In this document: positions 26,891-33,750 of the stretch, piece after piece
Layout: each line of letters begins with the position of its first letter
How positions within the stretch are numbered: position 1 is the stretch's first letter
Source of the DNA: Chiloscyllium plagiosum
Taxonomy: Eukaryota
Direction of reading: 5' to 3'
NCBI RefSeq assembly: GCF_004010195.1
Contig: NC_057718.1
Span: 62,353,619-62,417,618 of the forward strand
Length of the DNA stretch: 64,000 nucleotides
Made by a program: the position numbers and the translations under genes
The notes under the pieces: model-generated
What the model was told of the DNA's origin: nothing
Seen by the model: the letters and a program-made list of their open reading frames with translations, nothing else
Database searches by the model: none

Positions 26891-27760
26891 TTGGAGTTGC
26901 TGCCTGCCCACATCATCCTGCTGATAGAACATAGAGGCCTGAAGTAGGAGGCACCAAAAGGGGCAATGGGATTGCCTGTAAATTGATGAATCGTCTGGGT
27001 TAAGAGGTCGGCTAGAGTGCTGCAAACACCATTGAGTACAGGCGGTCGAGTTATAAGGCATAGGGACAACATAGTATAAGGGGGTCGCCTTTGTACACAA
27101 GAAACAGTCCTGTGTAGCCATCATTACGGCCGTATAGTTTGCCCATTGATACCAGTGATTGTCACAGGCGCGTACCCATGTTAGTGCAGCGAGGTCTGAA
27201 CTTCTAATATACTTTGGGTGGCACGGTGACTCAGTGGTTAGCACTGCTGCCTCACAGCACCAGGGTCCCAGGTTCAATTCCAGCCTTGGGTGACTGTCTA
27301 TGTGGAGTTTGCATATTCTCCCCGTGTCTGCATGAGTTTCCTCCCACAATACAAAGATGTGCAGGTTAGGTGAATTGGCCATGCTAAATTGCCCATAGTG
27401 TTAGGTGCATTAGTTAGAGGGAAATGGTTCTGGGTGGTTGCTCTTTGGAGGGTCGTGTGGGCTTGTTGGGCCGAAGGGCCTGTTTCTACAATATAGGGAA
27501 TCTAATCTAAAAAAACCTTTGCCTCCCAGCCTGAGCAACCCTGGCATTACCAGTCCAGGTCTGCCAAATTAATGGTCTCTAAGTCTGAGTATGCAGGCCT
27601 GGCATCACAGAGGGGGGTATCAGGGGCATCCCCCATGTCTTCCCCATCCCCGCTGCCAGGAGAACTATGCCCCACATCTCCATCACTATCATTTCTAGAA
27701 TGATCAGTATCCCCAAGAACTTCACCTGCACCTTGTTCGGAACCCTGCTGAGGGATACTA
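26891..27760 (-). pseudogene. env: ERV env N-terminal remnant, interrupted by a SINE
   Basis: Hydrophobic signal-like FLGILIILEMIVMEMWGIVLLAA overlapping the IN tail; DNHWYQWANYTAVMMATQDCFLC resembles the N.W..W..Y.A...C..C motif of fish ERV SU; no TM part. Confidence 0.6.
27216..27515 (+). mobile_element. HE1/V-SINE-type SINE inserted in env
   Basis: GGGTGGCACGGTGACTCAGTGGTTAGCACTGCTGCCTCACAGC...TCTAATCTAAAAAAA. Confidence 0.9.
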
Positions 27761-27829
27761 GTCCCCTGTATGCCCTGCCCGTGTCCTCGGCCTCAGCTCC
27801 ACTTATCTTAGTGTTAGAGTTAGTTTGTG

Positions 27830-29518
27830 CTGGTGGGAGAGCTTTAGTACAATGATTAAGGTGGTACCATATGTGTTGCCCTTCCACTTGGATGGCGGTA
27901 GGTGATGCCTTAGTCACTACGAAAGGTCCCTCTCTCCTCGGCTCATTCCAGCGTCTTCGAAAAACCCGCACGTACACCCAATCCCCAGGTTTAATAGGTC
28001 CTTCCTTGTTGACAGGTGTCGGTTCCCTTTGTGTTTCCTGCAGTGGATAGTCTCATGTATCATAGTTAGCTGCTGCATATATTGCTTAAGTTCTAAGCTT
28101 AACCGCTCCAAGCTAGGCCCTTCGTATGGGCCTCTCCACCTGGGCACTGGATTAGGTCTATCTGTGAGCATCTCATGCGGTGTTAGGTTGGTCATGTGAT
28201 TAGTCTACATGTGATAACTCATTAACGCTAGCGGCAGCGCATCAACCCAATTAAGGTTGGTGCTTGTACAGATCTTGTTTAACTTGGCTTTCAATGTCCC
28301 ATTAATCCTTTCCACCATACCCTGTGACTGGGGATGATACATGCATCCAAACCTCTGTTTGATTCTCAAAGACTGCAGCACCAACTTAACTACTTTCTGA
28401 ATGAAGGCAAACCCATTGTCTGAACTAATTTCCAACGGTATACCAAACCTTAGGATAACTTCATTCGCCAGAAATTTCACTACTGTCCCAGCTCCTGGTT
28501 TCAACCTTATTTCCATTGAGCTAGCTGATTTCATTCTCCCCAGATCTGTATCATGCTGTGACCACAAAGCGGCTAGTAATGCATCTAATTGCTCATTACC
28601 ATATTGATCACCTTCCTCCACTGTCACTGGCATGTTCAGCTGGGGTGTTACCTTGACTTCATTCGGATTCCCTGCTAGGATTTTAATATAGCTGCCATCT
28701 CTGGATTCCCAAACCCCTGTTGTGAGCATATGCCATTCCCTGACTGTTTCTACGTAGGTCCTAAGTCTTTAGATTGATATCCCTTATTTACCAGTAAGGT
28801 TAGATGTGGTGCAGCACCTGATACACTATGCCACTTTTCCAGGAACGCATTTCTCTCTATTTGCAGGATCACTCCCTGCTCCCCTAATACTATTGCTTCA
28901 CTTCTCAAATGTTACGGAGCAGTGACTTCCTGTTGCCACTGCCTCCCTAACACCTCATCCTGAGATTCATCGAATATCACTGTACAGTGCAGCTCAGACT
29001 TAGGTGGTCTTGCTTTAGTCAACATCGTCAACACTTCTGCTTCCCACACCCCCAAATGTCTTGAATATCACTTGCTATATCCCCTATCCAATAAACATTA
29101 ACATCTTTAACTACTTGCATCACTAATTGTGTCTTGGCCTTTTCTATGACCAAGCCCTGCTTGTGCACTCCAATCTTACCTCTAACTATAGTAAAGCATC
29201 CCTACCTAACAAATTAATTGGCGTCTCTTTAGGCACTAATATTGGCAGAACTATCTCCCTTCCTTCCATTTTTAATCTTACTGGAGCTGTAAATCAGATT
29301 AACTCTGATTTCCCTGAGAACCTTACAGTTTTAACAAATTTACTTGACATGGGAAGGTGAGAGGCATACTGCGGCTGTATACAAGTGTATGTAGCTCCAG
29401 TATCTATCACCACCGGTGTCTGCCGCCCTTCTATATTAACTTGTATTACTAGTTCTTGATCAGCCTCCCATGCTACTACAGGGTAGTGCCCCTTCCCACC
29501 CAGGTTCTCAGGGCATCC
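27830..29518 (-). pseudogene. pol: ERV pol remnant: protease, 2H phosphoesterase, RT N-stub fused to integrase
   Basis: VIDTGATYT...PINLLGRDAL (PR); ELHCT...PHLTL (2H); RFGIPLEISSDNG...YHPQSQGMVERINGTLK (IN core); EPRREGPFVV...WYHLNHC (IN C-terminus). Confidence 0.9.
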
Positions 29519-31499
29519 CTAATACATCCCATACGGGTTAACAGGTCCTGCTGGGCCTGTAGGTGTCTGGGAAGTGGTCACTGGGGATTCCCGCCGTCTA
29601 GGCCCGCTGTAGGACAGAGAGAGCCCGGTCCAATAAGAGCAAATCTTCCTAAAGTGGCCTGGTTGATGGCATCCCCAGCACATCATTTCTGGCCCCCCTT
29701 AAGCCTGATTATTTATCATGTACCTTAGTCCCCCATTCCTACGTCCCTGTCCATGGGCACTCAGTCTGTTTAGGTTATTGTTTAAATCTGCCCTGCCCCG
29801 GATACGTCACCTGCGGGAAAGCTTCTCTAAAAACCTCCATTGCTGGCATGGGATTTTCTGGCCCCTGTCTGGCTACCTGATTGGACCTCCCCTTGCACCA
29901 GCTCTTGGTTCACGCCAGTGTTGATTACTGTGTTGGTTCTTACTGGTAACACCTTTTTAGCCTTTTCTTTTTCTTTCTTTCTAAGCTCTTTGAGCTGCAT
30001 TTGTGCCAGCTTCCTTTGCACCTCCTGATGTTCGGACAGTTTCTCTTTGTCTTTTCAAAACCTTTCAACTGCATGAGCTACATGATCTCTAACTTCCTGA
30101 TGGCTCATTGATGATGTCAGACCTACCACCTCCTCCAGCCTTGACCTGACTTGGGAGGGCATTGCCTTAATGATGGAATTTCAGAACATTGTGGTCAGCA
30201 ACTGATTAGTCTCTATGTCTTGCTCTGTTTCCAGCCACCATTTCTTTAACTGTTTCTCCAAGTAGGCAGCTGGGTTTTCACTTTCTCCCAGTGGATCCCC
30301 TCTCAGAGCCTGGGGGTCCATTTTGGGTGGATAACAGTCTCTTAAGGCCTGCCATACATTTTGTCTCACTCGATCAAACCCGACCCCATCAATCATTGGA
30401 TTTTCTGCAGCATTTTTCAAATGGGTTTGGACCATTATTTCCTTTAACTTCGGGAGCCCTACCAACCTCACCAGCAGTGCCTTCAAGTCTCCTACAGCCA
30501 GCAATCACCCTGTGGTTTCATCTTCAAAAGCCCTGATCCACTTTCCCGTTCCATCATGTAAACTGGGCAGTGCATTCTTCAGCCCTTCCAGATCCTGAGT
30601 TCCCCAAGGAATGTATTGTGGGTTTTTCCCCTCTTTTATAAGGAGCGGTAGCATCTTTCCCTGTTGGCCCTTTTTCCCTTTACTGACATGACTTCTCAAT
30701 AAATCCCCCTCAGGCTCTGAGTCCAATGCTATTTCTAATTCCTCCCATTCTTTAGGTACTGGGGCATTTTTCTTTCCTTGTCTCGCATCATCCCTTTCTG
30801 CTTGTTTTGCGTCACTTACACAGCTTTTCTCTTCAGCCCTCCTTTCGTAACGCAATGAGTATTCCTCAATTGCTTTTTGTTCCCTTAGCCCACGTAGCAC
30901 ACTAATCTCATGTTTCAGCTTTTCTTGCTCTTGTCGTATAGCTTCTATTTTCTCAGGTCTGTCCCTTTCTCTCTTTCTCTTCTTTCCCTCAGTTCACTTT
31001 TGTCTTCCACACTCCCATCCCATTCTAACTGTCCCTCTATTTCTACTGTTCCCTTTATTACTGGGCACTGCTTCAATGCCTCTTCATTCGAGTTGGGAGG
31101 AGGTCTATTCAACTCCTCCACATCTGGGTATAGAGGAGGTGCAGATTCCTGATTTTCTGTTTCCCATAGCTGCTCAGCTTGTTCTTTTGCAGCTTTCCCA
31201 GTCATCACAGGTGCCTAACAAGTTACCTTCAGTTCCTCACCCTCTTTCCTGAAAAGTGTCAGTATTTCCATCTCCTGATTCCTCTTTTGGTTTCTATTTT
31301 TAGATTTATCTTTCAGCTTATAGTTCTTAATTAATCCTTCCATCTCATTGCACATATGTATATCAAAGGTACATTTTTTTGGCTATTTAGTCAATAAATC
31401 CTTAGTTCTTTTTTCCCATTTCTCAGAAAGTTTTACAATATCATTTCTTGCCACTGGAAATTTCTTACTCAATATCTCAACTGCAATCCCTTTATCCAT
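29519..31499 (-). pseudogene. gag: ERV gag (several stops and frameshifts)
   Basis: Starts MDKGIAVE...KWEKRT; late-domain-like SAPPLYPDVEEL; CA-like YIPWGTQDLEGLKNALPSLHDGTGKWIRAFEDET; zinc knuckle CWGCHQPGHFRKIC at 29639-29680; TAG at 29521-29519. Confidence 0.85.
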
Positions 31500-33081: not shown

Positions 33082-33099
33082 ACCCTGCTCACAGCGCCA
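33082..33099 (-). promoter_or_regulatory. ERV primer binding site complementary to tRNA-Ser(CGA)
   Basis: Minus strand TGGCGCTGTGAGCAGGGT; plus strand CCTGCTCACAGCG-CCA matches the 3' end of vertebrate tRNA-Ser(CGA) as I recall it. Confidence 0.8.
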
Positions 33100-33103
33100 A
33101 ATT

Positions 33104-33750
33104 TGTTGTGGAGAAAATATAGAGAACCACTAGGAGACGCAGAGAGTTCTTCAAGAAGTAGGTATTTTATTTGCAAACAAAAAACCATGACACTGAGAAA
33201 GCAGATTCTTGAATGTCCACGAACCTCAGGGTCCGTGGGTTTTTATTTTTTTTTATCATGTTTCTGTTAGCTTATCAAACTAATATCATGTCCAACTATA
33301 TTAATCAAAGTACCTCACTCTAACTACACAATAAACCAGTGATATTAGTTCCCATTATCTCTTTAGTTGTACATTCTACTTACTGTTATTCTAATGTCAC
33401 GGTTAGATATTTATTCTAGCTCTGCTACAATGGTCTTTCATTCCAGACTCTACTTAATATTTTCCTAATGTCATGATTAGATATTTATTATCACTTCTGC
33501 TACAGTGATCTTCCATTGCAGACTAACCTATCATGATAGATATTTAGCTATTCCATCTATTACAATAGTCTCCTGTCTCAAGCTGACTCTACTAACTATT
33601 AATTAGATATTTTAATGTCATGTCCCAAATACTTATGGTCCCAATCCTGTCATAATAACACTTAACAGAGAAACTTGCTTTATTACTTGTGTTATCTAGA
33701 CTTTTTAGCCTTAACCTTACTCTGCTAATTGGTGTAAGAATGTTCCACAA
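33104..33750 (-). mobile_element. ERV 5' LTR
   Basis: Ends ...CTCCACAACA just before the PBS; terminal inverted match TTGTGGA/TCCACAA (33106, 33750); minus-strand AATAAA at 33171-33166; tandem repeats in U3. Confidence 0.7.

Follow-up and report, generated by a model that had tools for sequence, protein, structure and literature searches.

The locus and its features

The stretch analysed here comprises 64,000 nucleotides (nt) of the bamboo shark Chiloscyllium plagiosum (contig NC_057718.1, positions 62,353,619 to 62,417,618 of the forward strand) and is called the window throughout. An endogenous retrovirus (ERV) of 6.86 kb lies in it next to the gene PEX13; read on the minus strand, it begins at 33749 and ends at 26891. 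The element is very probably the decayed remnant of a provirus whose virus was an epsilon-like class I retrovirus of fish, with an envelope of the gamma type, and its family has many copies in the bamboo shark. The PEX13 exons lie on the plus strand at 5711-23126 and were identified by the Pfam domain Peroxin-13_N (4.5e-47). The ERV stands antisense to this gene, 3.8 kb beyond its stop codon, amid fragments of long interspersed nuclear elements (LINEs). From the 5′ to the 3′ end of the element, the following features were recognized:

33107-33749, minus strand: 5′ long terminal repeat (LTR), about 643 nt, inner edge at 33107 or 33104, inverted ends TGTGGA...TCCACA
33082-33099, minus strand: primer-binding site of the tRNA-Ser(CGA) type, 17 of 18 nt complementary to tRNA-Ser-CGA-1-1
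31500-33081, minus strand: leader, 1.58 kb, with pieces of a short interspersed nuclear element (SINE) that came later or were carried, 31-bp repeats and a (CA)n microsatellite
32411-32675, minus strand: tRNA-type SINE within the leader, 72-90% to other SINE copies in the window
31622-31706, minus strand: 5′ fragment of the leader's tRNA-type SINE, 92% over 119 nt, duplicated together with the upstream 31-bp repeats
29522-31499, minus strand: gag, broken by premature stops and spread over three reading frames, putative first ATG at 31499
29519-29521, minus strand: gag/pro amber stop in UAGGGA context, a predicted readthrough site in frame with the protease
29162-29518, minus strand: aspartic protease, Pfam RVP 5.6e-9, DTG motif near 29404, interrupted by two stops
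28700-29160, minus strand: 2H phosphoesterase domain of the CNPase fold, both H-x-T motifs retained, with stops and frame changes
28493-28600, minus strand: first residues of the reverse transcriptase (RT), up to position 28494, where about 780 codons have been deleted in frame
27547-28495, minus strand: integrase core, C-terminal domain and acidic Pol tail, second Asp at 28412-28426, Glu at 28298-28315, broken
27511-27760, minus strand: probable env N-terminus, judged from frame and hydrophobicity, hydrophobic stretch at 27681-27719, overlapping the Pol tail
27215-27510, plus strand: SINE inserted in env, which it splits
26891-27214, minus strand: env surface-subunit stub, 108 aa, free of stops, truncated at a LINE fragment

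The LTR carries AATAAA at 33171 and a 74-bp tandem duplication at 33375-33524, and no second copy of it was found within the window (blastn, word 7, E<1). With the 3′ LTR missing, this copy cannot be dated by LTR comparison. The transmembrane subunit (TM) of env is likewise not in the window. The primer site was compared with the 3′ 18 nt of human tRNA-Ser-CGA-1-1 (sequence from PMC10359600). Of the leader, about 350 nt is SINE sequence and a further part is microsatellite, and the viral portion amounts to at most about 1.2 kb; no accessory open reading frame (ORF) was recognized in it. Two leader blocks, 31622-31790 and 32591-32741, lie 969 bp apart and duplicate the 31-bp repeats together with the 5′ 85 nt of the SINE, with an identical junction and variant bases in common. 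Either a local duplication after the arrival of the SINE or a SINE carried in the viral RNA would account for them.

The gag region was assigned because of its position and its CCHC motif (29680-29639), the sole CCHC in the six frames of the window. UAGGGA is the type III readthrough context of Moloney murine leukemia virus (MoMLV), and readthrough in epsilonretroviruses is given as unverified in the same source (PMC13517186). The structure downstream of the TAG in this decayed copy showed nothing unusual (z -0.34), 70 of 200 shuffled sequences folding equally well. The protease that follows matches its clade relatives at 44-61%.

Compared with intact relatives, which are colinear with this copy on either side of the gap, pol jumps from position 340 to 1121 (P0011), from 319 to 1100 (P0010) and from 322 to 1101 (P0017). 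The deletion took out the RT together with RNase H and, from the integrase, the zinc finger and the first catalytic Asp; the frame is kept. The integrase core, whose N-terminal half is missing, matched Pfam rve at 9.3e-5, below the curated cut-off, and the C-terminal domain matched MLVIN_C at 1.6e-12 (47.3 bits vs. a cut-off of 29.2). The acidic tail of Pol resembles that of a stingray relative (P0012).

An earlier note, made from the sequence of this DNA, had described an LTR, a primer site, a gag with a single CCHC, a TAG before the protease, a 2H domain, an env stub and PEX13 as the neighbor. All of these were borne out, and the env stub proved in addition to be split by a SINE. Its leader of about 1.6 kb stands as to length but not as to viral content. 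Its integrase stands for the core and the MLVIN_C domain, but the zinc finger and first Asp are deleted along with the RT and RNase H.

Class and relatives of the element

The long-protein search yielded 46 matches among 1830 candidates. The closest relative was found in the stingray Hemitrygon akajei (XP_072904472, P0012), whose integrase core matches at 84% over 144 aa, while the named teleosts of the same clade reached 70-74% and the shark Mustelus 61%. The RT of the intact relative P0011 matched RT/RNase H p80 chains, which we take to be gammaretroviral, at 1e-114, compared with 6e-49 for foamy virus and 3e-47 for Ty3.

The env stub matches a protein of Hypanus sabinus (XP_059831109, P0206) with 35% over 119 aa (5e-22). 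The C-terminal half of P0206 in turn matches the env part of P0019 (6e-44), whose TM has an immunosuppressive-type motif and a CX6CC motif of the gamma type. A full HMMER scan with the stub gave 12 matches, seven of which also matched in tblastn (six env-like proteins and P0206); the remaining five look unrelated or were set aside. A word-index search with the stub gave none of 23 candidates, the Atlas held no usable match to it, and no homologue of the N-terminal piece at 27511-27760 was found. One stub-related env-like protein, P0214, is filed under a bacterial Brevinema metagenome-assembled genome, into whose bin fish DNA from a gut metagenome was probably drawn.

Because of the MLVIN_C domain, the env homologue and the preference of the relative's RT for p80 over Ty3, the element was assigned to the class I retroviruses rather than to Gypsy, as the earlier note had proposed for this shark host. 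Two trees agree with its fish type. The first tree had 49 rows, with the window and 48 of the 51 relatives (three were dropped as short), and placed the window as sister to the stingray element (99/76) within a 25-row clade (99/98), where the remaining rows with a name belong to teleosts and Mustelus. The second, longer tree (LG+G4) had 26 rows, with 25 of the 51 relatives chosen by hand. In it, the window and the ray (95/82) were joined by one unnamed row and Mustelus (95/89), and this group fell inside the teleost rows (100/100). In the domain searches and the comparison of the relative's RT, the grouping with Gypsy named in the earlier note was not found. Reference viruses were sought in viral contigs with the Pol alignment, and none of the 13 pattern matches was confirmed.

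The trees suggest a single entry into elasmobranchs with movement between shark and ray. The position of the lineage amid bony-fish retroviruses, together with its presence in the stingray, suggests that infection carried it from one group of fish to another. The Mustelus elements were also considered as a separate entry into sharks, which was rejected because the second tree groups them with the window and the ray (95/89). Retroviral host switching of this sort has been published (PMC6001957, PMC10699275), as has the scattering of cartilaginous-fish retroviruses among those of bony fish (PMC6001957), and the present element adds a shark-ray pair to that pattern.

A CNPase-type domain in Pol

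The 2H domain lies between the protease and the remains of the RT, with its motifs HCT within 28992-28981 and HLT within 28809-28798. This piece was aligned by hhalign to an alignment of nine relatives (A2) with a probability of 99.6%, and both histidines are conserved in all nine. The predicted model of the relatives' domain had a pLDDT of 95.5. In a Foldseek search of the PDB with this model, all 50 matches at E<=0.001, among those listed, were CNPase or goldfish RICH. A wide structure search gave CNPase a Z of 15.9 (root-mean-square deviation 3.0 over 161 residues, 17% identity), followed by the next 2H enzyme (9.9), ns2 of mouse hepatitis virus (MHV; 8.1) and rotavirus VP3 (7.5). The top rows from a library of viral structures were one unnamed entry (TM-score 0.88), walleye epidermal hyperplasia virus 1 (WEHV-1; 0.79) and WDSV (the walleye dermal sarcoma virus; 0.69); the two walleye entries are labelled 'Envelope polyprotein', and we infer that they are Pro-Pol. 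The Pfam search by sequence was weak, with 2_5_RNA_ligase2 in three and LigT_PEase in two of the nine relatives (E 0.02-0.04). A WRKY match in the PDB profile search was spurious.

The relatives' domain shares its fold and paired H-x-T motifs with the catalytic domain of vertebrate CNPase and fish RICH, but it is a predicted enzyme embedded in a viral polyprotein and has 17% identity. A CNPase in fish ERVs is cited by PMC4977317, and WDSV is named for the 2H-type domain of fish retroviruses in PMC9503650; the present element adds a shark example of a CNPase-like domain in Pol. Host CNP is listed among the inhibitors of HIV-1 particle formation (PMC7471995). No functional test of a viral 2H domain was found in the literature searched.

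Judging from the fold, the domain might open the 2′,3′-cyclic phosphate RNA ends left by host nucleases, a reading to which we attach an even chance and which is favored because the fold resembles CNPase far more than it does the 2-5A phosphodiesterases of viruses. A part in assembly, or another role without catalysis, is possible but doubtful. Cleavage of 2-5A would be less likely still.

One contig of the sequencing run X9 (organism A) skips 413 nt of the 2H domain, from 28564 to 28978, at a depth of 192, and some sister copies may thus be without most of the domain.

Decay, sister copies and competing explanations

The coding sequence contains 11 premature stops and falls into eight segments with seven frame changes; this copy of the ERV is dead. 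We infer that it is some tens of millions of years old.

Four sequencing runs were compared over 26600-31600, of which X9 is from organism A and X14 from organism B. Outside the SINE bins, the summed contig depth was 855-3177 in X9 and 653-8034 in X14, compared with about 15 at the flank site 26658, and was taken to mean that the two organisms have sister copies by the tens to hundreds, although the tool warns that summed contig depth is not copy number. Between this copy and the 16 listed pieces from X9 and X14 the divergence is 9-15%, with likeness cut off at 85%. Pieces from run X1, which may be the source sample, are nearly identical to it (0/311, 2/261 and 4/260 differences). Since one X9 contig joins 27190 to 27537 without the env SINE, this insertion came later.

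A contig of X14 joins gag at 31301 to env at 26999 out of order, at a depth of 110 or about seven times the flank depth, and is a rearranged, repeated form of the ERV family.

Several points tell against the reading of the element as a class I provirus with a gamma-type envelope and a CNPase-type enzyme, in addition to the caution on depth. No match to gag was found in Pfam or the PDB, and its single-sequence fold had a pLDDT of 42. The RT is absent from this copy, and its placement was made on a relative only. The env type would follow through a two-step chain from the stub to P0206 to P0019, the TM being lost here. Both trees are without a named reference virus and rely for rooting on other teleost elements, and Mustelus joins the window and the ray in the longer LG+G4 tree but not in the first. 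The fold of the 2H domain is predicted for the relatives and not for this copy, and its presumed substrate is read from the fold alone.

Among the competing explanations, the one that survives best is that the RT-less form is an amplified non-autonomous subfamily, in which the in-frame deletion arose in an active family and was spread by helper copies. We consider it improbable. The deletion at 28494 does preserve the frame, and the skip of 28564-28978 in X9 and the 31301-26999 join in X14 are other rearranged forms at several-fold single-site depth. However, the frame is kept by chance in one of three deletions, and the tables of joints and loose ends were flooded by the SINE (518 and 2348, respectively, beyond those listed); sharing of the 28494 junction was neither seen nor excluded.

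It is very improbable that the element belongs to Epsilonretrovirus proper, as WDSV does, with an Env type of its own and accessory genes, even though its 2H domain matches those of WEHV-1 and WDSV and the predicted UAG readthrough is as in WDSV. Epsilonretroviral cyclin genes would lie at the 3′ end, which is lost in this copy, and the leader has no recognized accessory ORF. In the relatives, moreover, the TM is of the gamma type, which epsilonretroviruses lack according to Chen et al. (bioRxiv 10.1101/2021.11.23.469661).

Co-option by the host, either of the LTR as a regulatory element near PEX13 or of coding sequence that was retained (the env stub or the 2H domain, for example), is hardly credible. 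The element is 3.8 kb from PEX13, both 2H histidines survive and so do the 108 stop-free residues of env, but every gene is broken and the LTR is 10 kb off on the opposite strand, pointing toward PEX13. In the RNA run X21, about 2% of which was read, the depth outside the SINE bins was below 5. Because its reads carry sister-copy bases (3 of 3 at 30124 and 5 of 5 at 31014), the faint transcription comes from other copies.

A Gypsy (Metaviridae) LTR retrotransposon is the least credible explanation and is largely refuted, for although the order of protease, RT and integrase is common to both groups and some relatives were automatically named 'Gypsy' or 'transposon 412', the MLVIN_C domain, the env homologue with a gamma-type TM in the relatives, the relative's RT and the presence of the 2H domain in WDSV and WEHV-1 speak against it.

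Relation to described retroviruses and proposed life history

The class I provirus with a gamma-type envelope is a decayed member of an already known kind of fish retrovirus. [quoted passage not shown] The present element resembles them as a class I fish type with a readthrough between gag and pro, but their readthrough codon is UGA (PMC13517186), whereas UAGGGA is found here. The earlier note's epsilon-like piscine architecture, for which it named these viruses, therefore holds for the class but not for the stop codon. WDSV and WEHV-1 share the 2H domain of the same fold (for WDSV, see also PMC9503650), and WDSV shares the predicted UAG readthrough; they differ in having accessory genes and an Env that is not of the gamma type, and the 2H identity is 17-19%.

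The stingray protein XP_072904472 and the ERVs of the teleosts Triplophysa, Esox, Fundulus and Nothobranchius are the nearest relatives by integrase (84% for the ray, 70-74% for the teleosts), and the full-length teleost proteins have the same layout of protease, 2H, RT, RNase H and integrase. Unlike the deleted and broken sequence here, these proteins have open frames.

For cartilaginous fish, Chen et al. (bioRxiv 10.1101/2021.11.23.469661) surveyed ERVs with a gamma-type env in six species, with more than 500 copies in three, and reported 46 orthologous ERV groups in Chiloscyllium. Their elements are like the present one in an epsilon-related pol, a gamma-type env, the lack of an accessory gene, many-copy families that more than one species has, and the host genus. 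The comparison was by description only and showed no difference; the available part of their text does not mention a 2H domain. The bamboo-shark family fits their description and may be among their lineages. The CmiERV lineages II and III of the elephant shark (Han 2015, PMC4422223) are also epsilon-like chondrichthyan ERVs, dated to more than 50 million years, but belong to another host order and were likened by description. The earlier note's statement that chondrichthyan ERVs are sparsely described and its suggestion of an undescribed lineage are weakened by the survey of Chen et al. and by the close relatives in a stingray and many teleosts. Taken by itself, the locus matters little, being one more dead ERV of a sort already known from fish.

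While active, the virus would have used tRNA-Ser(CGA) as the primer for reverse transcription. It would have produced Gag and, when the UAG was occasionally read through, Gag-Pro-2H-RT-integrase. The protease would have freed a CNPase-type 2′,3′-cyclic phosphodiesterase situated between protease and RT, and cell entry would have been through a gamma-type Env. After integration, deletions would have cost the copy its RT and RNase H, the 3′ LTR and the greater part of env; with SINEs inserted and point damage added, it would have become inert. A more speculative and rather unlikely extension is that an unnamed tRNA-Ser-primed lineage jumped from bony fish to elasmobranchs and then passed between shark and ray by infection, with the captured CNPase as a working RNA-end-repair or anti-restriction enzyme. 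The observation behind it is that the bamboo shark and stingray integrases (84%) are nearer to each other than to that of the shark Mustelus. If this were true, the many shark copies would give a date for the jump and a measure of the time over which the enzyme was retained.

Surroundings of the element

The large exon of PEX13 is 100% to Chiloscyllium punctatum and 92-93% to the basking and whale sharks, whereas for the last exon the figures are 100% with C. plagiosum and 99% with C. punctatum. No further gene was found around the ERV among 150 of 151 flanking ORFs of at least 62 aa, a scan that short exons could escape; its four matches were all of the retroelement type.

LINE fragments, presumably of the family named CR1, abut both ends of the ERV (25050-26890 and 33750-34970). 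Since env breaks off exactly where the 5′ edge of one of these fragments lies, the 3′ half of the element may have been lost in a deletion linked to the LINE.

Upstream of PEX13, a second LTR retroelement remnant lies on the minus strand at 2328-2537, with a weak match to RT_RNaseH_2 (3.3e-5). A long LINE copy on the minus strand (49600-53160) holds a piece of a GDSL-esterase ORF1 (1.7e-7) and RT pieces, and is interrupted near 51290-52240, where the assembly has a gap of some 950 N. In intron 1 of PEX13, a 129-nt inverted repeat (7095-7223 and 7498-7626) has arms that are 99% complementary with 274 nt between them, and is possibly a young miniature inverted-repeat transposable element.

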